DNA of 55,284 bases, filler included, from Circinaria calcarea (Eukaryota): assembly GCA_051942165.1 (NCBI GenBank). It is 5 parts of 5 records of this genome, joined end to end, with 100 filler letters (N's around TTAATTAATTAA, not from the genome) between each part and the next. Parts side by side here need not be neighbours in the genome. Positions count along the whole stretch, not along the records: positions 22,182 to 33,157 come from JAVECS010000731.1; 4 more parts are not named here. The stretch is one strand, 5' to 3'. Both the position numbers and the translations under genes were made by a program. Below, piece by piece: positions 2,330 to 50,846 of this stretch. Below the pieces are notes generated by a model. The model worked only from the letters and a program-made list of their open reading frames with translations. It searched no databases and had not been told where the DNA came from. Within the stretch, counting starts at the first letter, position 1, and every line of letters starts with the position of its first letter.

Positions 2330-3628
2330 TCAGCAGAATACTGCTTTGAGCGACACAAATGGGCTACCGGGAAGAAGGCACTGTTGGTTGATTGGTTGAT
2401 ATATCGTGCCTTCGTCCCCTTGGCAATTGGGTTCCACGTAAAAGTTAACTGAGACCACATATTAGAACATACTTGCTTTCGTCAAACATTAAGGTAAAAG
2501 GGTCATCGTACGTTGGCATGTGGAGTATCTGATATATCGAGCATAGTTCTGATGGATCGAGATACACTCGTTATTCTGGACAGTGACTGAGCCTGCCCAC
2601 CCCCCATCTGGTGCACTGGGGCAAGCGTTCTGATTGGGATAGTAGAAATAGGTAATGGACGTGTCTCTAGTCTCAAGCGTCGAATTTCTCTGGCACAAAA
2701 GGTCGATATGAGCTATATCAAAGAGATAATGGAGGAGATACACACCTCATTGAGTTCACGCGTTTCTAGCCCGTCAGTAGAGGCAAGGTCACGCTTGGGT
2801 CCATGAAACTTGTAGCAGGTTGGATCGCCATCCCTACAATGATATGACGCCTGCGGACCAGGTTAGCTAAGTTAACTTTTTAAAGAGTATAAAAGTAGTG
2901 CGTACAGTTCTTTCTGGGTCTCTCGCCACAATAGCACTCGTTTTTAGGGAGGTTGGGGTCGGAGAGTCAGTCAAAGGTCCGTGGAAGGGCCCATGACAAT
3001 CCTTATCACTCAGAGGACAAGGACGAGGGCGATGCGGAATAGGTCCGAGAGGTCCAGGGCATCTTCCCTCTCCGAGTGGGCAGAAAATATGAACACTCTT
3101 TAATATCCAGTGTCAGTACGCTAGACACCTTAAGCGGTGATATCATTGTTCACCTCATCACGCGCTTCAACGATGTCTTTGGGACAGATCCCCACTCCGA
3201 GCGAGCAAGCTTCTGGTTCAGGCTCAACAATAGGACCGCAGGCTCCCTCTCCAAGTGGGCAGATGCGCTGAGTTGTCTCCTAGTATCTGGTGTCAGCACT
3301 GAGCACACGAAAAGAAAAGAGTTCTGTCATTCACCTCATCACGAGCTGCGACATCAGAGATAGTTGATAGAGGTTCGGGAGCTCCGTGGATACCGTGCGG
3401 GTTGACGAATGGCCCATCGAATGGGCCATGACAGTCAGGATTGGCCAGCGGACAAGGGTGGATGATGGCCTAGCACCATCAAGAACAGCATAAGTAGGAA
3501 GTCATTACGAAGGGAAGAATGTGGAGAGAGGGGACAAGACTCACAGCAGCCTCATCAATTGGAGCTGCCAACACACTCTTGAACCCGACCAGTACACCGA
3601 GGGTTAGTAGGGAAACAAAGACCTTCAT
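2330..3628 (-). CDS. Secreted Cys/Pro-rich modular repeat protein (~312 aa, 7 exons), unknown function
   Basis: Hand-spliced exons 3628-3545, 3469-3335, 3279-3154, 3097-2906, 2850-2746, 2689-2512, 2448-2330. All introns are GT..AG and the frame stays open. Signal peptide MKVFVSLLTLGVLVGFKSVLA, six Cx6C motifs, C-terminal 6-Cys domain. Confidence 0.85.
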
Positions 3629-13503: not shown

Positions 13504-15341
13504 TTAAACTCTCCCCGCGGGAGTATCACGCACCCGTGTTTTGAGGAAAATGCGCTGAGTAGGATTCGGTGTTGATAATCCTTCGATATTGAACCTGGGC
13601 GGCTGACCAGGTTGGGTGCGATCCCATGATATATCATACTCGGCAATTAGCTTGCTGAAAAGGATCTTCATGAGCCGGACCGCGAAGAAGCGGCCAGGGC
13701 AAACGTGGTTGCCATAGCCAAAGCTGGCATATGTTATTAATGTTCAATGGAGTTGATGCAGGTCCCATCGACTTACACAAGATTGGTTGAGCCAACATGA
13801 GATGCGACCCATCTATTCACCTTATCTTCTGTTCGTGCATCTGCTGTAGTAAGCTTTGCGAACCGGAAGCCATCGAATTGAAGTGGGTTTTCGAAATAAT
13901 CCGGATCGCGCTGGGTTGATCCAGCCGGAAAGCCGATGCGAGAGCTTACGGGTAGCGTTAGGCCATCAGAGAAGGTAAAGGGTTCATGCATCACGGTACG
14001 AGTGCAGTTCACTAAATAAGGGTCAGTAACTGGAGTCCAACTTATAGCTGGGGCCACTCCGTACACGAGAAAATTGGATACATGCGATTAACCTCTCTAA
14101 TAAAACTGTCCTGCAATGGCAGACTATTAATGATTTTCTCGGACCAGCCATGCTTCGCGATAGCATCATCGACTTCCCGACGCAAAGGCTCGAGATAGCT
14201 TGGATCTTCTAAGATGAGAAACAGCATCTGAGTGATTATCGATCTAGGAGAGGTCTCTGAAGCCTATAGATTTTGAATAAGCTCATTCGAAATATACCAC
14301 AGCGGCTCGGATCCGTTAGGGTCAATCGAATGTTCGTTCAATAATTTGAGTGTCCACTCAATCCCGTCAATTCGAGGAGATGTTTGGATGCCGCGAGCTC
14401 GCTCTTGCATCCGCTTTTCAACGACGGGCGAGATGATACCGATCAACTGCCGTAGTTTTCGACGTTGGACAAAGGCAATCGGCCACGCCAAAACGCCTCG
14501 GAGTACTCCCAAATGGAGCTTAAGTAGAATAACGCCGGTGATAAAATTCCCCTGAAAATACGCTTGCGAGACCTTGAGAAAGTGCTTATCTCGACATAGC
14601 TCTTCTCCCATTATCACTAGAGAAACCGTACGCTGAGATATACTGGTGAACAATGTGAGAGCAGGAAACCCTCGGGATTCTGTATTTGTTAGCGGTAAAG
14701 ATTCGAAACCCTGGACGCGGAAAGTGGAAAGAGACTAACGACTGCAGTCACCGAGCTCGGCCTCGAAAGCGTAGCGTGCTTCGGAGATGCAAAGATCAGT
14801 AGCTTCAGCTATCCAGCTGTTAGTCCGAGGTCGGTGGAAAGTAGTAGTAAGTCTATACGTAAACGAGGATTGAGTCCCTTTTTAACAACATGGACCATTC
14901 GGTCACTTGAGAATAAATCCCCAACCCAGTATTTCATGAAGAACACCTGCTGGTCAGCTTGCTGATTTGAAAATCAGGGACTGTGACTCACATCAGATAT
15001 ATTGTCACGAAAGCTTAAATGCATCGGGTCGGCATGCTTAATATCAGACAGGTACTTCAGCGGCAGAATCACGTATTCTTTGGCCCAATATCGAATCAGA
15101 AACGGCTTTTGAGAGGGCTTGCTAATCTTTGAATGTTAGATGCCACCGTATTCCATGGGCATAACTCGGTATTAACCTTCTGGTAACCTCTGTCGAGAAG
15201 GTCTGTAACCGGATTCGAAAGTACCAAAGCATATCTCCATGTTCTGCCCACAGTATCGAAAGCCCCCTGAGAGCTTGGATACCACACAATACAAAGCAAG
15301 CAAACAGCCAACAAAGAAGAGATGATAGTTAACACTTCCAT
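13504..15341 (-). pseudogene. Cytochrome P450 with in-frame premature stop
   Basis: N-terminal anchor, ExxR (IREVNR), FDGFRF, heme motif FGYGNHVCPG. In-frame TAG at 14264-14266 (ELIQNL*ASETSP) in the I-helix region with no splice donor to remove it. Confidence 0.8.
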
Positions 15342-18962: not shown

Positions 18963-19916
18963 TTATTGTGGCTTTCGGCCCCACACCACGCGCAGCGGGA
19001 AGTTCGCTCCACGCTCCGATAATTCCGCTCTCAGACGAGGTACTAAAGTATCAAGCTCTTCTTTGGAGGGTAGCAAAGGCGGGGTTGGGAGTGCTAAATA
19101 GTCAGCCTCAAGTGCTTTGGCTCATCGAAGATGATGTATGTGGACTGACTTTTTGTGAAATCCACCAATCCCTTAGCAGCTATACAAGTCGAGTTAACTC
19201 CTCGCTGCGCAAGCTGGGGATCTGCATTCGTGGCTCCCATGTATACATCCACCAGACGTTCTTGAACATCCACAAACCCAGCAGCCTTAATCCAGCCGGC
19301 TACCTGGCGGGCAAACGTAACGTCCACTCCCATGGTCGTGAACACGTTCTTCATTACCTGGAGGAAATCGTGCATGGCTGGGCCGTCTTTCTCGCCGATG
19401 ATGCCCTGTGCTTCAATAAGCTGAATCCATCCGGCCGGCCTGACCAACTCTGTAAGATGCGTGACAGCAGTCTGCGCAGCCGGCCCAGCGCCCACGAGTG
19501 CTAAGCGCTGATGCACAATATCGAAGGAACCATGCCATTCCTTTGGCCATGGATCGTTGATGTTCTGAACTTGATATGTTGTGCCTGGCGGTGGAGGCTC
19601 TGGAAAACATTGAGGATTGATGCCGGTACCAATCAAGGTGTGGGTTAGACCAGACGGGACGGAAGATGCAAGGTCGCGGAGCCAGAAGCCTGTCGCAAAT
19701 GGTCCGTTAGCATCTCCCACCACATCACCATAAGTTTATCGGCCTACCATCGGCTGTTGCTGAATCCAAAATGCGCAGTGGGGCCGCTGCAAGGTCGACG
19801 GGCACTAGCAGCAGCCCGCCCATGGCGTCTTTGATCACTTCATGCTGGCTTGACAGGCGGCCCATCTCATCATCGCTCTCGAGGATGTAGTCGGTTTTTT
19901 TCCCATCCTCGGCCAT
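18963..19916 (-). CDS. Class I SAM-dependent methyltransferase (GliN/SirN-like N-methyltransferase type)
   Basis: Three exons. EMGRLSSQHEVIK, LRILDSATADG, FDIVHQR, LVRPAGWIQLIE, C-terminal VVWGRKP. Confidence 0.8.
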
Positions 19917-20424
19917 AATCGTAGGGACAGTCACGGGCAAGACGGCGGAGTTTGATATGGGATGATATCCAAAGGCCACCTAACGGTTGGCCCGGCACAG
20001 TGCGATGGCAATTATGGAGGATGGGTACGTAGAGCCGTTTAATGAAGCAGCAAGCAGGCCGAACCGGCTGCCGGGATATCTCGCAGTAGTTCTAATGCCC
20101 GAAAAACCGACTGACCAGCCATCTTTCTAGGGGCTCCTAAATTACCCGGTCGAAGTGCTGCTGAACGTCTCGTTGCTAACCCAATTCCTTCTCTCTCGCT
20201 CTTGCAATCTCGATTCGGTCCTCGGTTTGCTGCGAGTTGGAGCGGGTTGGCGCCGAGTGCGAAAGGGTTGATACCGTGGCTGCGCATAGCTAACTTAGCG
20301 AGGGTATAGAAATGACCGTGGGTTGACTTTATCACTTGCTGCTTCACCGTTTATGTAATGAACCTTCTGGTCTGAGGCAGGCACATTAAAAAAGATCTCG
20401 CATTCGGTTCCTCTTCTTGGCCCC

Positions 20425-21881
20425 ATGGCGTCTGCAAACACAAGTAGAATCGTCCAGCTTGCAGCGGCTATTCAGTCCCATACAATCAAGGTGGATGCCT
20501 ACCTTACCACGCACGGCCTTCCATCATTATCATTCGATGCCGAAATTCCCTCTCTACCCCCAGACACCGAAGCTTCCCGGATCTCTATTCTCGAAGCCAC
20601 AGACGAGATGGCGGATCTGATGCTCGGGCCTCGTCAGCTTGCCGAGTGTAATCCGCCTCAGGTTAATATGAAATCTCTATGCTGTATACTGTGATTGCTG
20701 ACGCAATTCCAACAGCACACTTCGCTCCTGGGCATCCAAGCTATCAGTCGATATGGCATTGCAAGCCAGGTCGGAACAGACGAAGAAGTAACGTTTACGG
20801 AGCTGGCTGAACGATGTAAACTTCCCGCCGACGATCTCCGGCGTCTTCTGCGGCAAGCAATGTCGAGGCATATCTTCAAGGAGCCACGCAAAGGCTACGT
20901 TGCTCATACCGCCGCATCGAGAATTCTTGCCACGTCTCGAGGTATCAACGACTGGGTCTATATGGCTTTGGATGAGATGTGGCCATCGGCTGCACACATG
21001 CTGGACGCTATGGATAAATGGAAAGGCTCAGAAGAAGCCTACGAGACAGTCGGTGATCAGCTTCCTGATAAGATGGATAAGCGGAAACTCGCTTCTAATA
21101 AACCTTTTCTTCAGGGATTCAACCTTGCCAAGGACACCAAAGACTCGTTTTTCGATAGTATGAAGGATCATCCACGCCGGAGAGACGCGTTCTCCAACGT
21201 CATGAGCTACGTACATTCCCGGCAAGGCATTGGATACTCTCTGTCGCATCTTCTTTCAAGCTATAACTGGGCTTCAGTCGGCACTATCGTCGATATTGGA
21301 GGGGGAACCGGTTCTACGAGTGCGGACCTTGCTCGAAATTACCCATCGATCCGTTGTATTGTCCAAGACCTGCCCGATATTGTTGCTCAGGGCCGCGAGC
21401 AAGTCGGAAGCGATGTGGCCGGGCAGATTACCTTTATGGCGCACGATTTCTTCCTGGAACAGCCAGTCAAGGATGTAGATGTGTATTTTCTTCGCTGGAT
21501 CCTGCACGATTGGTCGGACAAGAAGGCTATATCTATTCTAAAGAATCTGATCCCGGCTCTAAAGCATGGGGCCAATATTATCCTCCAGGAGTTCGTGATT
21601 CCTGAACCTGGTGTTCTCTCCTTCTATTATGAAAAGGTTTTGAGGTAAAACTCGGTTACGTCCGGTGCCCTGCCTAATATTACCTGCTAATAATATTTAA
21701 CAGATATTTTGATCTCGCTATGAAAATAAGCTTTAATTCAAAGGAACGAGAGATAGAGGACTGGATACAGCTACTTATAAATGCTGATTATCGTTTTAAA
21801 TTCGTCGGTGCAAAACTACCCCCTGGGTCTAATATGGCAATTATCCACGCTCGCTGGGAGGAAAATACCCTATCTATATAG
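20425..21881 (+). CDS. O-methyltransferase family 2 (fungal secondary metabolism)
   Basis: N-terminal dimerisation/wHTH region, IVDIGGGTG, IVQDLP, FMAHDFF, LRWILHDWSD, last exon NSKERE..W. Confidence 0.9.
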
Positions 21882-21916
21882 AATGAAGGCGAAATATATA
21901 TATATATTAACCCTCC

Positions 21917-21963
21917 CTCTCTACCCTCTACCCTCTACCCTTCTACCCTCTACTTTCTACCCT
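21917..21963 (+). repeat. Imperfect (CTCTACC)n tandem repeat in AT-rich contig end
   Basis: About 6 imperfect 7-mer copies visible. Confidence 0.6.
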
Positions 21964-22081
21964 ATCCACGCCCAATAAATTCACCGGGGCCTTTTTCGGG
22001 CCTTTTTCGGGCAATATAAGGCCTAGGTCCGGGGTCCAGGGAATAATATAATAATTTATTGGTGATAAACAGTATATATAA

Positions 22082-22489: not shown

Positions 22490-23487
22490 ATGCAGCCGTT
22501 TGATAGTGAGACCTCGGAAACTTTTCTCAAGCATGCTCCTTTCCATGACTGGGACGATAAAAGGCCTAATCGACGCATGCGACACGCCCTCTGGCTATCT
22601 TGTTCCCTTAACGTCCTTCTCGCGCTCTCCTGGGTTGGCTTCATTTTTACACAGCGGCTACCGTCGTCATCTAGATCTTCTGCTTGTATACGGCCGCTCG
22701 AAGGTAAGAGTATATCCATGTTTTCTTGCCGGATTCCAACTCATGGAGCCTCGCAGATATCTATGATGATTTTGTGTCTACTATCCGCCATACCTCTATC
22801 CGTTATGATACCGACCCATCAGTGAATGATCTCGATTTCAAAATCTATTGGGGTCGACATTGGTTTGAGAACTCGCCTCAAGCGATCGACGAGTTATGGC
22901 AAGACCTCGCAAGCAGTAAGAAAGAAGCAAGCTCGTCCAGGTTGCCAGTTTACGAGCCCCGCCAGTACAAGTCCTGAGCATCACTGCCGAAGAGGCCGCA
23001 AAACTTCCTATCCCAACTGCTGGCGACCCAGATTCGCCGGGCAAGTTCGCGGTCTCGCCCCAAGTTTTTCACGATGTGCATTGCTTAGTATGTGCTTCCT
23101 TCTGTCTATTCCTCACTTTCCATTGCAAGCTTGACCGTTGCCTTTCAAGCATTATATCCGGAATCATGCTATGGGTTATGCGCCAATACATAACGAGACT
23201 GCGAGTAAGCATCTTGTTCACGTAGGTAAGGTGACTTCTTCATCTACTTCCATATATTAAGTTGCTGATGCTAGTACCATAAAGAGCACTGCCTAGGTAC
23301 TCTTCGCCAGAGTATCATCTGCGAGGGAAGTCTCCAGCCTGTGGTCTATACCTTAATTAACGGCACCGCTTACGCTAATCCTGGTGCTACACCTCGGACA
23401 TGTCGTGACTGGAGTATGATATGGGATTGGGGCAAGCATAGAGACATCACGAATGGAAGTGTTGGTAGAGATGGCAAGAAACACTAG
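22490..23487 (+). CDS. DUF3328/UstYa-like oxidase (copy 1)
   Basis: Five exons. N-terminal TM (SLNVLLALSWVGFIF), IDELWQDL, motif 1 VFHDVHCL, motif 2 HVEHCLGTLRQSIIC, C-terminal RTCRDW. Confidence 0.92.
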
Positions 23488-23646
23488 TTAATGATAGTCC
23501 TATACTTCTTAACGCGATAGCAGCCTATTACTCTTCCTAATCGCAAATAGTTCCTGAATCAGTCGAGATAACAACTTCCATCCAACGTGAAGGAGACCAT
23601 AGAAGAAGGCGTCTAAGCCACACAAAAAGCCATTCGCCTCGACGAC

Positions 23647-23978
23647 CTAAGCTTCTTCATACCTAGGATATGCGTTGGCTTGAGCGGTCAGTGATAACTT
23701 GCCTCTGAAGACTCACCCAAATGGAGGAAAGGGTTGGCTGTTCACGGAAAGTTAAAATTACTCAAGTTCTAAAGGTAGGAACTTACCCTACAAAGGGACG
23801 AGGTCAGTATATGCATGGACCGAGTCGGGAAGAGACACATAGAATTATCAGACCCACCTTTGACGAACACGTTAACAGACTCAAGGTCAGCTTCGCTGAT
23901 AACCGGTGCTGCTGGTGCGGCTAAGACGGCGGCAGTAGTGAAGACCGCAAGGCTGAAAGAGATCTTAAAAAACTTCAT
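23647..23978 (-). CDS. Putative RiPP precursor peptide (52 aa, secreted)
   Basis: Exons 23978-23858, 23787 (1 nt), 23737-23717, 23662-23647 give MKFFKISFSLAVFTTAAVLAAPAAPVISEADLESVNVFVKGQPFPPFGYEEA*. Clear signal peptide. Lies between two DUF3328 genes. Confidence 0.75.
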
Positions 23979-24415
23979 GATGGATCCCTGGTAGAGTTCG
24001 ATGGCGAGAACAGAATCAACAGGTAGGTTAGGGTACTTGATGTGAGAAGGTTAATAGAGGTTTGCGACTAGGAAGGAAACATTTTCTAGGAAATTACAGA
24101 ACAACAACATGATTAAATAAAGCAGGTGGGAGTAGAGCTATTCGAGATCATACCTGAAAAGTGCTACCCCCACTCGACAACGAATACGTGCATCAATAAA
24201 AGGATAATTGCGTTTCATAAGTGTCGGCAAATCTGCAAGCACATGCATGTGGTGTGCCACATGTGTGCCAAGTCTACAAACTAGGTAGGTTCTCAAGGGT
24301 TGTCATCTAGTGAAAAGCAACGCACAGCCTCTTCGAGAAAGTTATCGCCTCGTCACTCTTCGATCTAGCTACTGAACTTGCTGAATTTTAGTTTTTTGGA
24401 TCTTTAACGCCTCTC

Positions 24416-25299
24416 ATGATGGCGAGTAAAGCCTACACATACGAGCCTCTCGACCAGGTTTCCAGGTCAAGCATCGACATCTCCATGATTCAATCACGCA
24501 AGTCTTGGAAATATTTTCGCCTAGATATAAACAGCAGAGCGCTAATTGCTTTTATTGCCATTCTCCTCATAAACAACAGCATCTGGGTCTGGGTACTTGC
24601 GGCGCACGGCGTAACCCAAAGTTCTACTTCGTGGAGTTACTGTAAGTATCCAAATCAAAAATATGACCTGATTTAGGAGAACCCTAATCATAGGCTCTTG
24701 TTGCAAAAGACAACTCCACCACCCAAATATCCAAGTCCTTCCACTGGAATACGCCGTTCAGCAGCGACAATAAAACCGTCTCAAATCATTTATGGGCCGA
24801 ACTGTTTCCTCGTAAACATCTATTCCATCGGATACAACGCGTATATATATTCTAAGACTTCGCAGGTGGAGCTGGACTTGTGACCGTGGACGAGAAATGG
24901 GCCAAGGCCCAAAACCTCCCTATAAGCAAACAAGACCCTACGGATGCTAACCGCATGGTCTACTTCGTGGCTGCTCTGCACCAAGTCCACTGCCTGGTAC
25001 GCGATCGCCATTTTATTGTGAGGTTTCCGATCATGTCGCTAACATTTACCTGGCTGAGCTAGACGGTCATACGCGCCTCTCTTTTCCATTTCAATGAGGG
25101 AAGAGATCAGACCGTCCCTTGGAAGCATGTCACTCACTGTCTGGACAGCTTGCGGCAAGTCGTACTGTGTAAAATGGATGATACCCTTTTGTACACCGAA
25201 GATGCAAATGTGTTTGGTGACGGGCAGGTCCATATTTGCGGCGAGTGGAATGCGTTGTCGCAGTGGGCGGCGGATCATGCGTATGTGCAAGAGCAATGA
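24416..25299 (+). CDS. DUF3328/UstYa-like oxidase (copy 2)
   Basis: Four exons. TM ALIAFIAILLINNSIWVWVL, FHWNTPF..NHLWAEL, motif 1 LHQVHCL, motif 2 HVTHCLDSLRQVVLC, GDGQVHICGEW. Confidence 0.92.
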
Positions 25300-25435: not shown

Positions 25436-26297
25436 CTACACCTTGCCCTTTATCCATATATTCATCCCGATCTTTGACCCTTCGCTCACTGGCAAGCCCG
25501 CATGCAGCACTCGTTCGTCCCCCGTCCCGTTGGCTCCGAGATTGATCCAGAATACCCCACTACCCAAATTGGGCATAACGGCGAGGCCAGTGCGATTTGC
25601 AGTCGTTGAGAAGCGATCCCCGTGCACGTTCTCTGGCGGAGCAGGTAGTCTAGGAAAATAGGTCGCCCCTGCGGTGCAATTTGCGTCGAGGTAGAGGAAA
25701 AAGCTTGCAATGCGGTTGTAATCCTCTCCGCTGGTGCTCATGAGGGGTGTCTCGAACCAGTCGTAGTGCATTGCAAAAAGCGCGGACGGTCCGTACTGGA
25801 CTAGCTGGAGTGCTTCGACGCCTAGGAAGGGGATGAAACCTATCAACATGAGCGCGCGTTGCTTGACGAGTGAGACAATAGCGTCGCCGGTTGGCAAGAT
25901 GCACGAGGAGGATGTGCGGTAGGATGGTGGCGGAGTTTCCTCGTCGTAAGGACTAGTGTAGACTTTGGATGGTTGGAAAAGGGGCTCTCTATATTAGGGT
26001 CAGCTTAAAAGCTCTGCAGTTTGCGGCGCGTAGCAAGGCTGTTTTTAACCCTAGCTTGACGAGGTACTCCGTCTCTCGTGGATGGAGGAATCCATCGAGG
26101 TAGATCATCAGTGGATCGATCGATAGAACCTGTGCGGTGTATCTATGGCTCGTAGAAATTGATATTAGGTCCTGCGGCACATTCGACTTCGATGAAAGCC
26201 ACGTTGTAGCAAGCAAAGAGCCTTGAAGCCATGATATGACGAGGCTGAGAGCAATTGCCATGACAGACATGTGCAACACATACTGCGTGCCCGACAT
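25436..26297 (-). CDS. Prolyl 4-hydroxylase-like Fe(II)/2OG dioxygenase
   Basis: Two exons. N-terminal signal/anchor, LSIDPLMIYLDGFL, RTSSS, EALQLVQY, HYD...LHAGLPVSEGSK (HxD..H..K, the P4H arrangement). Confidence 0.88.
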
Positions 26298-26494: not shown

Positions 26495-27415
26495 TTAAGC
26501 CACAAGGCCGTGAAACGGCGCATAGCGTCGCACTTTGCCTTCTGTGACACCATACTCGATCTCCGCCTCGTCAAGTATCCTGGCGTCGAAGAACGCTTTG
26601 GCCTCCGTCCAGTCGCCTTGCAGCAGCGCAGCCTGGACCTTATCCCGCGATTACAGCATAAACTCCAGCATGTTCGGAAACCGGTCATCGTCGAGCCAAT
26701 AATTCGAAAACGTGCCGTAAAGCTTGAATTTTGCCGCCCAGGCTTCGAATGATGGATAAGGATAGTGTAGGAGGACGGGGTATTGTCCTTCTGCCTCTTT
26801 CCTGGAACCCTCTTCCTGCTGAGATGCAGGCAAGGTTATAGCGACGCCCTCGTAGCCCACGAACCTGTGTGGTCCGTTAGGCACCACATTCCGGCTTAGC
26901 CTCACGGCCGATTTGCCGTTCCCATACGCCATGAACGCCTTGTCGCTATTCACGCTGAACCAGACACAGTCCATAAACGCATTGCTCGTAGGATGCGAGA
27001 TAGGAATAGCCTCGTGATTCGTGAACGTGACGTGGCCGACGCCCGGGCAAGTCCGCCAGCTTGTGTGACCGTTCTCAAACAGGACCTCATCCTGGTCGAT
27101 ATGCAGCAGCCACCAGCCGTCCGGCTTGTCTGCATGCTGCGCTGGCTGCGTCTGGTCGAGCAGGAAGGATATTGCGTGCTTGAGATTGCTGTTCTGGCGC
27201 AGGCGTAATCGATTGGAGCGAGCCATACGTGGGGCGTCCATTGCGCCGTCGAACAATCTTACGGCTCGGCCCACACACAGACTCTCGAAGATGGGCCGCC
27301 TGGTGGGATCGTCGATGTAGATAATCAGTAATTTACAGCGCTGAAGGTGATAGTCCAGCCAGATAACGAAACTGAGCGCGGGCTCTAGGATCGTGGTGAC
27401 GATTGCGAGGGCCAT
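26495..27415 (-). pseudogene. GT-A fold glycosyltransferase-like protein (KOBITO1/ELD1-like) with premature TAA near C-terminus
   Basis: Intronless. WLDYH..IIYIDDP, RQNSN, WLLHIDQDE (DxD), AYGNGKSAVR, PNGPHRF, VLLHY. TAA at 26651-26653, after which the frame continues (SRDKVQAALL...GLVA*) to 26495. Confidence 0.75.
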
Positions 27416-27596
27416 GGCTAGAGGTAGAAATGGAGAGTTTGTAACCGAGAGAGAGAGACAGACTTTGGGCTCTCGCAGCCTTGAAGACTAACGGATGCTT
27501 TTCCATTCTACGGCTACTTTTGCAGCTCAAAGCAGTCCGAGTTGTCGTGAGAGGGCCAAGGCGCTATATTTTCGTGTCACTACATGCAGTCATCCT

Positions 27597-30500
27597 TTAT
27601 GACTCTTTGGCTCTGCCGCTCGCCTCCCATGCCGCCTTCGCCAGCGCCAGCAGATCATCCTTGTCCATAGCAGCCTCACACATGCTCTTGAACATGCCAC
27701 CCTCCCTCTGGAGAAGCTTCCAAGGATGGTCGAATTCCATAACCTTGCCACGGTCCAACACGATGATCCTATCGTGTTCCACCACTGTTCGAAGTCGGTG
27801 AGCGACTGTAATGACCGTGGACCCCATTTTCCTGATACATCCCTGGATCTTGAGGTCCGTTGTATGGTCGATTGAGGCGGTAGCTTCATCCAGGATCAAT
27901 ATGCTTGACGCTTTGAGGATAGCACGCGCGATGCAAATAAGTTGCCGTTGTCCCTGGGAAATGTTGGAGCCTGACTCGGCAAGAACAAAGGACAGGTCGG
28001 CGAACTTATTGGTTATGGCGGTCGAATCCTGCGGCTTGCTGTGCTTCGACCCAGATCGTGAAGGTGCTCGGGCCAGTCCGCCGCTGTAAGATTCAAGTAA
28101 TCCGACGTTATCGAGAGCGCGGAGTACCTCCTCATCGGTGTGCTCGTCGCATGGGTCCAAGTTGAAACGTAAAGTACCCGCAAATAGTATTGGGTCTTGA
28201 GGTACAGTGGCTAATCTTTGGCGCAGAGCACGCAGGCCAATGTTTTTCGTGTCTACGCCGTCGATGCGGATCTGTCCGTTTTCAACTTCAAGCCCGCGCA
28301 GAAGGGTGAGGACAATGCTGGATTTGCCCGCACCAGTGCGACCGACAATACCGATCTTTTCAAGCGGTTTGATAGCGAAACTAAGTTCGCGGAGAATCTG
28401 ATCTAGGCCTGGAGCATAGCGAGTCGAGACGTTGTCGTATTCGATTACTCCCGTTCTAGGCCAGCCCTCGGATAGATTTGTGTTGTTCATAACTGCTGGT
28501 GCTTGCTGTGGAATATCAATGTACTTTTGAACACGTTGTAGTCTGTAGATATATGTCAGCATTCGAACACCCAAGCGTTGACCGCGACAGGACTTACGCA
28601 GTCACATTCTGCAAGTTTGAGGAATGATACCGCACGAGCCAGAGTACGTGTTCGGAGAACACAATGGCATAGGACATGCTCAGCCCGATTGCCCCCGCAC
28701 TGAGCTTGCCTAAACTCGAGATGGCAAATGAACTTGCGAATAGGGATACAAAGGCACCTATAAGACCAAGTCGAATCGAAAGCCATCTCTCCGTAGCTGC
28801 CGCAAAGAAAGAAGGCCTGTTGGCTCTATCAATTTGAGTAAAGTTACCCGCCGAGTACTGACCCATGGCGCCAAACGCGCGAATGGTGGTGACGCCTGAG
28901 AGCGTCTCACCAAGATGCTGGAAAAGAGGCGCGCGTTGGCTCGATTCAAACTCTTTGAGGTCGCGCGATGCAACAATGTAAACGGCGCCAATGAGGTAGT
29001 AGGCAATACTGATCGGAACTCCCGGGACAAGAAAACTGGGCGTAGTCATCGCTATGAGTATGACAATACCTGCGAGCGCTCCTAGAAAGTGCAAGGTTGC
29101 GATGATGAGCACAGCGAGGTGCTGGTCGACAATCTGCAAGTCTGTGGAGAACCTGCCAATGATCTGGCCGAAAGAGGTATCGTTGAAGAAGATGAAGCTG
29201 GCGTTCATGATAGACTTTATAAGCCGTCGGTGTATCACAGCTGAAGCCTGGAGAGAGCCAAAGGATACCAGGAACAGTCTCAGTAGGCCTACTACCATGT
29301 AAAGGCCAATAATGAGGCCATACATGCCAAAGTAGTAGGTAAGATTAATCCTCTTGGGGCTGAGCTGACAATCGTAGCTACTCTCAGACCGCATGCCATC
29401 CGAGTATTCCTTGGTAGCTTGCTGTCCTGCTTGCGTGTATGCATCGGATAAGTTCCGAACCCACCAGTTGGTGGCAATGGCTCCGAATTGCTGACCTATA
29501 AAGGAGAACACAAGCAGTGGCCAGAAGCTCCAGCCACCCATGCTAGCGAAATACCTAAAGATATCGCGCCACGAGAGCTTTTCATTTCGCTGAAGTTCCT
29601 CGGTAACAGATACGTCTCCATCTGGTCGATCCGCGTCCTCCTGCTGGATAACATCGTGTTTTTTCTTAATCTTTTCCGGTCTTGTTTTAGCTCCTAGAGG
29701 AGTGTCGGAAAATTGGTGGTTTCTTTGACTGCCCTGATCATCGTTATTCGTAGTGAACGAATTGTTGAGTGGGAAATGGAGGCCGAGTTTTGCAAGGTCA
29801 CTCGGGGCCCCCGCTGCAGCCACTTTTCCGTTCTCGAGAGCGACTAAAAAACGGGCATCAGCTGCAGCAAGAGCCAAGTTGTGGGTGACCAGTATACAGG
29901 TTCGGCCCTTGAGAAGAGATCCTTTGATACAATGTTGAAAAATCCATGCGGCAGTATGAGCGTCCACGGCACTGAGGCAGTCATCGAGAAGTAGATGACA
30001 GGCGTTTGAATAAGTAGCTCGCGCCAGCGCAATCCGTTGTTTCTGTCCGCCGGATAGGGAAATACCACGCTCGCCTACCTGTGTGCGCTCGCCTTGAGCA
30101 AGATCTTTGAGGTCAATGGCGAGCGCGCAAGCATCCAGAACCGCTCTATAACGCTCCTCGTTGTAAGGACTGCCGAACAGGATGTTATTACGGATTGTGT
30201 CATTGGTCAGCCAAGCTTCTTGTGCGCAATATGCTACGGCGTCGATTAGGCCAGAGTCTAGATCAACTGGTAAATCCTCACGGTTCACAGCTGCGGGCAT
30301 GCGCACGGCTCCTTTGATAAGTGTCATTTCGCCCAGCAGGGCCAGTAGCATTGAGGACTTGCCGCTGCCAGTCGGCCCGGTAATAATATTGAGCTGTCCG
30401 GATGCAAATTTGATGTTAAGATCTCTTAGAGTAAATTCGTTGCTGACATCGGAATGATCTTTTGAGGTACCGTTGATAACGTAATCCTCTGCGGAAGAGT

Positions 30501-31952
30501 CCCAGCCGAATGTGGCATGCTCGAAGCCAATTTCCGATGAAAAGTAGAGCCGCTGTTGAGGGAGTTGCTTATACTTGCCCGTCTCAGGTTCCTTCAAGAA
30601 AATTTCGACCCGCCTGACAGAGACGAGAGCGTCCTGAATACGAGCAAGCATTCCGACAAACTCGTCTAGGGGTGTTTTGAGAAGGTTGAAATATGAAAGT
30701 GAGGAAAATGCCAACGAGGGAGTCAGAGGCTTCCCCTCTATGATAGCGTAGACAAAGAACGATGTGAAGGTAATAAGCAAGGGCATACTATACCAGATGG
30801 TTGCAGCAATGGACCAAAGAATATATCGAGCGCGTAGAGCTCGAAGTTCTTCTGTTCTTTTCTCATCGATTCTCTGCTCAAAGCAAGACTCCCAAGCAAA
30901 GAATTTGATGACACGAATACTGCGGACCATTTCGGTCGTGCTCTGGATCCTTCGGTCCGATGCGGCCATGACTTGCAGCTGAATCGCGCCAAACTGTCGA
31001 GTAATTTGAGAGTTCAGCGGCACCACGGCGGTCATTAAAGCAACGCCAGCAAGGGCACTGAAACCTAGCGTGGAATACAGCAAAGAAATAGCTATAAGGA
31101 TTTGCACCGGAACTGATCCCCAGACTTGATGCATGCTGGCTCCTGCATCGGCAATTTTGAAAGCGTCCGTGGTAAGGAGGTTCATGATGGTTGCGACATC
31201 AGCCTGCGGGGCCGTTTCGGTTCCTGGCGGTGACTTTTCCGTTCTCTCAGACAGGGAGGAGGCAATTCGCCGTCTCAATGCTTTAGCGTATATTTCGCTG
31301 ATTATGATTGACCTCAAGCGGAAACCGATCTTCTGCCCGATCCACAAGGCACGACCTTCTGCAACGGCCGCTAAGATGCTGGTAAAGAACAGAAGAGCCA
31401 CATAGAGCCACGCTTGCTCCACAGTGATCTTACTCTTGTCTTCCACGTACTGCAAGATAGTCTGAAGGAGCAAAGTTGGAACAAATATGAGCACTCCGTA
31501 CAGAATCGCCCAGATTGATTGGATTGCGAACAACTTTTGAAAGTGTCTAAGCAGGCGGGATAGAAGACTAGGACCTTGACTATACATGGATCAGCTAAGC
31601 TCTAAATCTCAAAAGTGAAGAAAGGGATTATAGCTAACCTGGCTTCCTGAAAGGCATAGGCATTGGCGCTCGCGATATCTGCTGAGCCTAGGGAAGGCAT
31701 ATCTTGGAGCTTCAGTCCTCGGTTGTGCCAACCTTTTAACAGAAGACTATCCATCCAAGCAAAACTCAACTCGCCTAGTGTTGTTGCACAGAGCTCCCGC
31801 TCTGGCCTGCGCCATGTCAGAGCAGTAATGAGCACGAGCGCCATTGTTATGATCAATGCAAGATGAGACTCTTGTAAGGCGAGTTGCACCTTGGTGACGG
31901 TAGTGCTCCACTCCATCATCAATTGGCGGCTTTCCGGTATTGAGGGGAGCAT
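27597..31952 (-). CDS. ABCC/MRP-type ABC transporter (Ybt1-like)
   Basis: TMD-NBD-TMD-NBD. Walker A GPTGSGKS and GRTGAGKS, signatures LSGGQKQR and ISQGQRQ, lasso motif LSFAWMDSLLLKG. Two introns. Confidence 0.93.
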
Positions 31953-33157: not shown

Positions 33158-33257
33158 NNNNNNNNNNNNNNNNNNNNNNNNNNNNNNNNNNNNNNNNNNN
33201 NTTAATTAATTAANNNNNNNNNNNNNNNNNNNNNNNNNNNNNNNNNNNNNNNNNNNN
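33158..33257. other. Artificial contig linker
   Basis: N44-TTAATTAATTAA-N44. Confidence 0.98.
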
Positions 33258-50220: not shown

Positions 50221-50846
50221 CTGTGGTCGCATGGGAAATAAATTATAGCTCGGCGCTAGTAGAAAAATATTTATTATAATTAAATTCTGAAAAGGGCTTT
50301 ATTATTTACTGTGGTCGCAGGCATAACAGATATTAGTATGGTTATCTTGCAATTATTATAGAAGGCCTAAACGATATTTTAATTTCATACAGAAAGACGG
50401 AATATATACCGGAGGATGCCCTCCATCTTATACCTCTTTCTCGAAAGAATTCATACAGCTTTTACTGAGCATACCGGAGTTAATCGAAGCCCGCGTTAAC
50501 ATCTATCAGATATTAATATAATTATCTTGCAATTATCATAGAAGGCCCAAACGACATTTTGATTTCATACAGAAGGACGGAATATACACCGGAGGATGCC
50601 CTCCATATTACACCTCTTTTTCGAAAGAATTCATACAGCCTTTGCTGAGCATACCGGAGTTGGTCGAAGCCCGCGCTAACATCTGTTATGCCTGCGACCA
50701 CAGTACTTCCAGTGTTTCGTTTGCATGCCACTTGCACCAATCAGAATAGGAAATGGAGTTAAAATACTTGGAAAATTTTAATAGTCTGAGTAAGGATTTT
50801 AGTGACTTTAGCGCTGAGCTAAGATTTATTTCCCATGCGACCACAG
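50221..50846. mobile_element. Non-autonomous TIR element (Tc1/mariner-type, TA-flanked) hosting a nested MITE
   Basis: TA|CTGTGGTCGCATGGGAAATAAAT ... ATTTATTTCCCATGCGACCACAG|TA. Confidence 0.8.
50309..50703 (-). mobile_element. Nested MITE, tandem dimer of the ~200-bp unit
   Basis: TA|CTGTGGTCGCAGGCATAACAGAT ... ATCTGTTATGCCTGCGACCACAG|TA. Internal direct duplication (junction near 50506) whose copies differ mainly by CA>TA and TG>TA changes. Confidence 0.82.

Follow-up and report, generated by a model that had tools for sequence, protein, structure and literature searches.

Our analysis suggests that a small minus-strand gene, lying between two UstYa genes that both match PF11807, is real and encodes a secreted, nonrepetitive RiPP precursor that would reach a length of 52 aa through the removal of three introns. 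We assign this reading a probability of about 0.5. The window, by which we mean the whole 55,284-nucleotide stretch of Circinaria calcarea DNA analyzed here, is fungal, with genes interrupted by 50- to 70-nt GT..AG introns and with Pfam matches to UstYa, P450, ABC transporter, and similar families.

An earlier note on this DNA had proposed the gene, and its coordinates and letters proved right: the ATG lies at 23978 on the minus strand, in good context with A at -3, and the stop codon TAG lies at 23649..23647. Its description of a signal peptide followed by an acidic pro-region likewise agrees with our results. Exon 1 (23978..23858, minus strand) comprises 40 codons and the first base of the Gly-41 codon, and its product opens with a basic segment (MKFFK), followed by an uncharged hydrophobic run of 15 residues and a VLA↓AP cleavage-type site; after the signal peptide (about aa 1 to 20) follows an acidic pro-region that ends in VFVK at K40. 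The ORF is among the 7 of 438 ATG ORFs of at least 25 aa in the window that a crude signal-peptide rule selects. Since it also selects the P450 membrane anchor and two antisense ORFs inside UstYa B, this rule is specific but not clean.

Codon usage provides a second line of evidence. Using a model trained on 5,797 codons of the window's long, mostly Pfam-supported ORFs, we obtained for exon 1 a log-likelihood ratio of +0.271 bits/codon in frame, and the two shifted frames gave -0.64 and -0.87; 40-codon windows of the coding reference span 0.02 to 0.32 bits/codon (5th to 95th percentile). This places exon 1 second in a ranking of the window's 162 short ATG ORFs, where its neighbors are mostly the first exons of real genes. 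The unspliced frame from the ATG stays open for 69 codons before reaching a stop, and the 24 codons that continue it past 23858 score -0.209 bits/codon, under the coding 5th percentile. Coding thus ends where the proposed intron 1 starts, and, with read-through rejected by the codon statistics, intron 1 is in all likelihood real. We regard it as very probable that exon 1 belongs to a real secreted-peptide gene. The third rank among the 162 ORFs (+0.268 bits/codon) is held by another short minus-strand ORF, running from 3628 downward (window about 3482 to 3628), with a signal-peptide-like start, MKVFVSLLTLGVLVG...; it lies outside the cluster, between an RCC1-repeat gene and a mitochondrial carrier gene.

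Beyond exon 1, the minus strand carries three intron-like segments in close succession. Intron 1 (23857..23788, 70 nt) has a GTGGGT donor and a CTGAC branch 16 nt before its TAG. It is followed by a proposed 1-nt exon (g, position 23787), predicted to supply the second base of the Gly-41 codon if introns 1 and 2 are both removed, and by intron 2 (23786..23738, 49 nt), with a GTAAGT donor, a TTAAC branch, and a CAG acceptor. A 21-nt exon (23737..23717) then precedes intron 3 (23716..23663, 54 nt), which has a GTGAGT donor and a CTGAC branch lying 25 nt ahead of its TAG, and the last coding piece of 16 nt (23662..23647). When introns were defined by the donor GT[AG]NGT, a CTRAY or TTRAC branch, YAG 5 to 30 nt further on, and a total length of 45 to 90 nt, 28 segments over both strands of the window fit the pattern, approximately the number found in shuffles. 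The sole chain of three with gaps of at most 25 nt on either strand, and the only two adjacent pairs, are formed by the three segments of the candidate gene, and Markov-shuffled strands yielded a chain of three in 0 of 300 cases and a pair in 13 of 300. This run of three intron-like segments is not due to chance. A stricter rule, in which the first AG after the branch is used, failed to recover the chain, owing to an AAG that lies in intron 3, 9 nt past the branch A. We rejected this AAG as the acceptor, as it would produce a 38-nt intron, shorter than any modeled here and presumably too short.

Removal of all three introns, as in the mRNA that we consider likeliest, takes 173 nt out of the message between the ATG at 23978 and the stop at 23647. 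In the frame of the earlier note, the 21-nt exon then encodes QPFPPF and two bases of a Gly codon, which the last piece completes before continuing with YEEA, so that the C-terminal 12 residues are Pro/Phe rich with one Tyr. We enumerated splice models from 12 candidate introns, with up to 3 introns per model, and the 52-aa product proposed in the note was reproduced, albeit by one combination only, in which the three introns are removed and the 1-nt and 21-nt exons are kept; the need for a 1-nt exon, which had gone unmentioned there, is the weakest link in the 52-aa model. The basic residues of this product are K2, K5, and K40; it contains neither Arg nor a KR or RR pair, and K40 is the single Lys preceding the proposed core, GQPFPPFGY, itself a prediction that depends on splicing of the 1-nt exon.

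Exons of a single nucleotide occur in fungi but are very rare: long-read annotation of Coprinopsis cinerea includes 13 of them in 13 genes, according to the sections of that report on such exons (PMC12230235). Whatever the order of removal, loss of all three introns leads to the message of the earlier note, and the sequence holds nothing against this in an intron-defined system. We also considered a stwintron ([D1,2]) reading, in the definition given by PMC12403724, and rejected it, as the primary sequence already shows an unbroken GTAAGT donor. If true, the 1-nt exon would defeat standard gene callers, which bears on annotation.

The absence of repeats and of dibasic Kex2 sites, which the earlier note had stressed, was borne out. 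No TRF tandem repeat in the window fits a repeat-type precursor, no 4-mer recurs three or more times in any stop-free segment of at least 40 aa in the six frames of the window, and there are no direct repeats of note within 23500 to 24450. With no repeats in its product, the gene would indeed be missed by repeat-based (KEP) mining.

The candidate gene lies within a cluster spanning about 11.6 to 32.2 kb of the window. On one side is UstYa A (22490..23487, plus strand), with an N-terminal membrane anchor, four introns of about 53 to 61 nt each in our hand-built gene model, and two HxxHC motifs (HDVHC and HKEHC); on the other is UstYa B (24419..25299, plus strand), also membrane anchored, with the motifs HQVHC and HVTHC. 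From their last exons alone, UstYa A (E 1.2e-10, 42.0 bits) and UstYa B (E 1.3e-11, 45.3 bits) both score over the Pfam gathering cutoff of 25 bits by which we defined PF11807 membership, and the expected placement of the precursor beside DUF3328 genes therefore holds on both sides. The candidate and UstYa A are convergent, with 159 nt from stop to stop, while the candidate and UstYa B share a divergent intergenic region of about 437 nt (23979..24418). Next to UstYa B, and all on the minus strand, follow a prolyl-4-hydroxylase-like 2OG-Fe(II) oxygenase with an N-terminal anchor (25436..26297; PF13640, E 7.5e-8), a 278-aa ORF with only a faint GT2-like match (26651..27487), and an ABC transporter with two ABC_membrane and two ABC_tran regions (27597..31952). 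Beyond UstYa A, we found an O-methyltransferase (20362..21648, plus strand; PF00891, E 1.1e-29), a putative methyltransferase-like gene that has no Pfam match and whose family was deduced from its translation (19094..19916, minus strand), and a cytochrome P450 with an anchor-like N terminus (13773..15341, minus strand; PF00067). A gene for a multipass membrane protein is also part of the cluster, which is flanked by COG3 and ribosomal protein S2 genes at one end and by GNAT-type acetyltransferase and tRNA synthetase genes at the other. Between the O-methyltransferase and UstYa A, the intergenic sequence includes simple repeats (21915 to 22012), with CTCTACC present about 6 times, followed by about 2.4 copies of GGGCCTTTTTC.

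Neither an NRPS nor a PKS was found among the ORFs of the window scanned against Pfam, a scan that covered long ORFs, and the 23 kb on one flank of the candidate and the 31 kb on the other are free of backbone synthases among these ORFs. Without an NRPS or PKS in the window, a ribosomal substrate that passes through the secretory pathway is the simplest reading, and the candidate is the only ribosomal substrate candidate seen in the cluster. We consider it probable that this ORF is the precursor of the cluster. A tyrosinase gene was not found in the window, and no peptidase family appeared among its Pfam matches, which covered the long ORFs.

With respect to its wider distribution, UstYa B belongs to a well-conserved subfamily. 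Relatives with E of 1e-5 or below made up 16 of 23 candidates, were 50 to 70% identical over the last exon, and are assigned by their sources to Sordariales, Pleosporales, and a Xylographa; the closest match (P0004) shares 53% identity over 190 columns. By source name, P0004, P0005, and P0007 come from Cladorrhinum sp. PSN332, Chaetomium sp. MPI-SDFR-AT-0129, and Lasiosphaeria ovina, respectively. For UstYa A, no close relative emerged from a word search, and none of the 599 pattern matches obtained by scanning metagenomes with its last exon was confirmed. A second, profile-based scan of JGI metagenomes returned 20 loci. In the three closest of these (L001 to L003; last-exon identity, about 60%), a relative of the 2OG oxygenase (43 to 47% identity) adjoins the UstYa B-like gene, so that the two genes look like a conserved module; the three contigs are too short to reveal any precursor. 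The pairing of UstYa B with a prolyl-hydroxylase-like enzyme fits a proline-rich core. Comparing L001 (1-1943) with L002 (1-2935), both of which carry the pair, we noticed that the UstYa ORF is unbroken in the former (226 aa) and holds an intron-like insert in the latter, which makes L001 look like a sequence derived from spliced RNA.

Three more distant loci of the 20 contain classical repeated precursors beside UstYa genes. In L010 (74-483, also present in the larger contig L009), the precursor lies upstream of the UstYa gene and consists of a signal-peptide exon, two introns, and at least four units of G-D-I-K-A-D-Y followed by RR or R. The units of the L005 precursor (minus strand, from 1847) end in DPAVLQSR and lack a dibasic site, and those of L018 (minus strand, from 6231) contain IVPIYSF and are flanked by KR. 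Repeats thus stay the norm around related UstYa genes.

As a check, the earlier note had suggested screening related genomes for a leader that is conserved and a core that varies beside DUF3328 genes, and in the searches that we ran no peptide homolog turned up. A word search with the 69-aa read-through ORF found none. Neither did phmmer against 1.84 billion representatives, for which the two matches with E values up to 0.001 were dismissed as repeat proteins (4,191 and 847 aa) whose scores sum matches of 18 to 48 residues. The best ESM Atlas score for the precursor, 0.76, was below a useful level, and tblastn of exon 1 against the 20 metagenome loci gave best E values of 0.46 to 2.4, which are not significant. 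The window's own precursor ORF is also missing from the protein database. Since short, intron-split ORFs are seldom annotated, we take the missing homologs as weak negative evidence.

Two of the metagenome loci carry small nonrepetitive ORFs of a comparable kind. In L011, a small gene (minus strand, from 7483) with a signal-peptide-like start and an acidic leader lies on the opposite strand between two UstYa genes, convergent with the first and divergent from the second, as in the window. A probable phase-1 intron follows a G behind its acidic leader, the downstream exon is not clear, and the orthology of the flanking UstYa genes to those of the window is ambiguous. L013 encodes a 55-aa nonrepetitive signal-peptide ORF (1417-1250, minus strand) that has two Cys and a C-terminal KR site and is convergent with a UstYa gene; it may be another single-copy precursor. 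Across 390,564 six-frame residues, the motif [ED]AA?D.?[LT][EP]S fits the window, L011, and L013 and nothing else; because it was derived from these same three sequences, we rejected it as evidence and treat it as a lead. When the mature parts were tested by shuffling, p values of 0.28, 0.27, and 0.09 were obtained, and the resemblance between L011 and the window precursor was not significant once the signal peptide was excluded (p = 0.28). With this result and a post hoc motif, we take L011 as a positional analog only.

Even if the ORF is the precursor of the cluster, its C terminus might differ from the one proposed. Were intron 1 alone removed, the frame would stop two codons later, yielding 41 aa that end at Gly-41, with the core in SVNVFVKG. 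A single 120-nt intron (23857..23738), which skips the 1-nt exon, would turn the 21-nt exon into ANPFLHL and give 56 or 63 aa, and retention of intron 3 would result in a 48-aa product; retention of intron 1 would result in 72 aa. These C termini draw on the same splice signals, and skipping the rare 1-nt exon calls for no unusual event. Codon totals over the C-terminal part are +1.57 bits for the three-intron model (12 codons), -1.75 bits for the 120-nt intron, and -4.53 bits for retention, so that the statistics only weakly prefer, by a few bits over 12 codons, the frame proposed in the earlier note. However, the 41-aa model would place two consensus introns in the 3' untranslated region and make the unique chain of three a coincidence, while the 120-nt intron, besides its negative score, would pass over a TAG and consensus branch situated 70 nt from its donor and compares poorly with the hand-modeled UstYa A introns, which measure only about 53 to 61 nt. 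The three-intron frame also has 3 Pro in its 9 core residues, against 1 in either alternative frame of the 21-nt exon, and in a cluster with a prolyl-4-hydroxylase-like 2OG oxygenase this is a functional hint in its favor. Only the three-intron model with the 1-nt exon puts one Tyr and two Phe in the core; the other models have no Tyr. A precursor with another C terminus thus seems possible but doubtful to us, and for the exact 52-aa product with its 1-nt exon we would give even odds. We further examined a weak donor, GTCTGT at 23880, whose 143-nt intron would reach the same C-terminal frame without a 1-nt exon and yield 44 aa; it was rejected for poor donor fit, as C at +3 and A at -1 agree poorly with the donor consensus.

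More fundamentally, the ORF might not be the substrate at all. It could have arisen by chance or encode a small secreted peptide unrelated to the cluster, and the UstYa enzymes would then act on a precursor or metabolite encoded elsewhere. Consistent with this, the word search, phmmer, and the ESM Atlas all failed to find a homolog of the peptide, and the signal-peptide rule also passes probable false positives. Genes for DUF3328 proteins are found in the astin and atpenin clusters too, UstYa proteins act in NRPS and polyketide pathways, and a precursor may sit outside its cluster, as discussed in sections of a study of lichen clusters (PMC12048977). Nevertheless, the second rank in codon score and the nonrandom intron chain point to a real gene. 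Among the ORFs scanned, there is no backbone synthase in the 23 kb and 31 kb on its two sides, both flanks of the cluster are occupied by housekeeping genes, and three anchored lumenal enzymes would need a substrate in the secretory pathway; we judge this alternative unlikely. The repeated precursors near the related UstYa genes of L005, L010, and L018, the lack of relatives of the ORF, and its oddly fragmented 3' part would also agree with a decayed remnant of a repetitive, Kex2-processed precursor in a silent or dying cluster. Yet the two UstYa genes look intact, as do the oxygenase and the transporter, no trace of a repeat was seen in any frame, and the splice signals are of consensus quality, which decay would have eroded. 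Such a remnant appears more improbable still.

Compared with known systems, the setting resembles that of the dikaritins, with UstYa/DUF3328 oxidases, one or more methyltransferases, a P450, and a transporter. Like the dikaritin precursors UstA (ustiloxin), PhomA (phomopsin), and AprA (asperipin-2a), the window peptide has an N-terminal signal peptide. Dikaritin cores carry an aromatic residue, usually Tyr, for ether cross-linking, and the predicted core of the window peptide would include a Tyr if spliced according to the three-intron model. Known dikaritin cores are present in many copies and are released by Kex2 at KR or RR sites, whereas the window peptide has one putative core copy and no such site. 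Its gene also differs from theirs in being split by three introns, with exons of 1 and 21 nt, and the cluster in having a prolyl-hydroxylase-like oxygenase and no tyrosinase that we could find in the window. Since repeats and Kex2 sites are two defining features of dikaritins, we do not count the window peptide as a member. Tyr is found in 65.6% of the repeat units of DUF3328-associated KEPs, according to PMC7329392.

Another parallel is offered by the UstY RiPP clans R1 and R2 of Parmeliaceae lichens, which, in the sections of PMC12048977 that describe them, have DUF3328 genes and, like the window, no repeated precursor detected. Clan R1 shares an O-methyltransferase with the window, but there it sits between the two UstY genes, where the window has a small secreted ORF; R1 also has a tyrosinase, none being seen in the window, and an FGE-sulfatase. 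For these UstY clusters without repeats, the lichen study left the precursor question open, offering as explanations that the precursor has one core only or that it is encoded beyond the cluster, and no candidate single-core gene is named in its relevant sections (PMC12048977). The MSDIN/cycloamanide precursors of Amanita and Galerina are, as the window peptide is predicted to be, short, single core, and proline containing. These, however, have no signal peptide, share a conserved MSDIN start, and are processed by a prolyl oligopeptidase, as the pertinent part of PMC10840396 describes, in contrast to the MKFFK start and signal peptide of the window peptide and to a window among whose long ORFs no peptidase gene was found.

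We propose the following scenario for the 52-aa precursor. The signal peptide would carry it into the ER, where signal peptidase would cut after residue 20, and the resulting 32-residue propeptide would meet the anchored, lumenal UstYa A, UstYa B, and 2OG oxygenase in the ER or Golgi. Within the single C-terminal core, the UstYa enzymes would oxidize or cross-link aromatic residues, and the oxygenase would hydroxylate Pro. The methyltransferases and the P450 could then tailor the product. Next, the leader would be cut at or near K40 by a protease; Kex2 cuts at dibasic sites, and since the precursor has none, it is unlikely to be this protease. Finally, the ABC transporter could export the product. 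More tentatively, and with odds that we place well below even, the cluster may represent a new UstYa-dependent RiPP branch, defined by a single-copy, Kex2-independent precursor whose Pro/Phe/Tyr core spans a 1-nt and a 21-nt exon and is hydroxylated by a prolyl-hydroxylase-like enzyme of the cluster that travels with the UstYa B subfamily across Sordariomycetes, Dothideomycetes, and Lecanoromycetes.

In the searchable literature, which covers few subscription papers, we found no characterized single-core UstYa-dependent RiPP; provisionally, all the characterized UstYa-dependent RiPPs found there derive from repeat-type, Kex2-processed precursors. Nor did we find in it a paper that joins DUF3328 with prolyl 4-hydroxylase. 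As mining pipelines look for repeats, a validated single-core precursor between UstYa genes would provide a template for finding missing precursors and, if our reading is true, would explain why many UstYa clusters seem to lack one. It would also show that UstYa oxidases can work without repeats released by Kex2 and would tie a prolyl-hydroxylase-like enzyme to UstYa chemistry.

Two further features of the window lie apart from the candidate gene. On the 5' side of the GNAT-type acetyltransferase ORF, a run of N at about 33213 to 33257, which we read as an assembly gap, appears as X in the translation. At 50327 to 50684, an intergenic region contains an AT-rich unit of 180 nt as a tandem pair with 90% identity (TRF score, 597).
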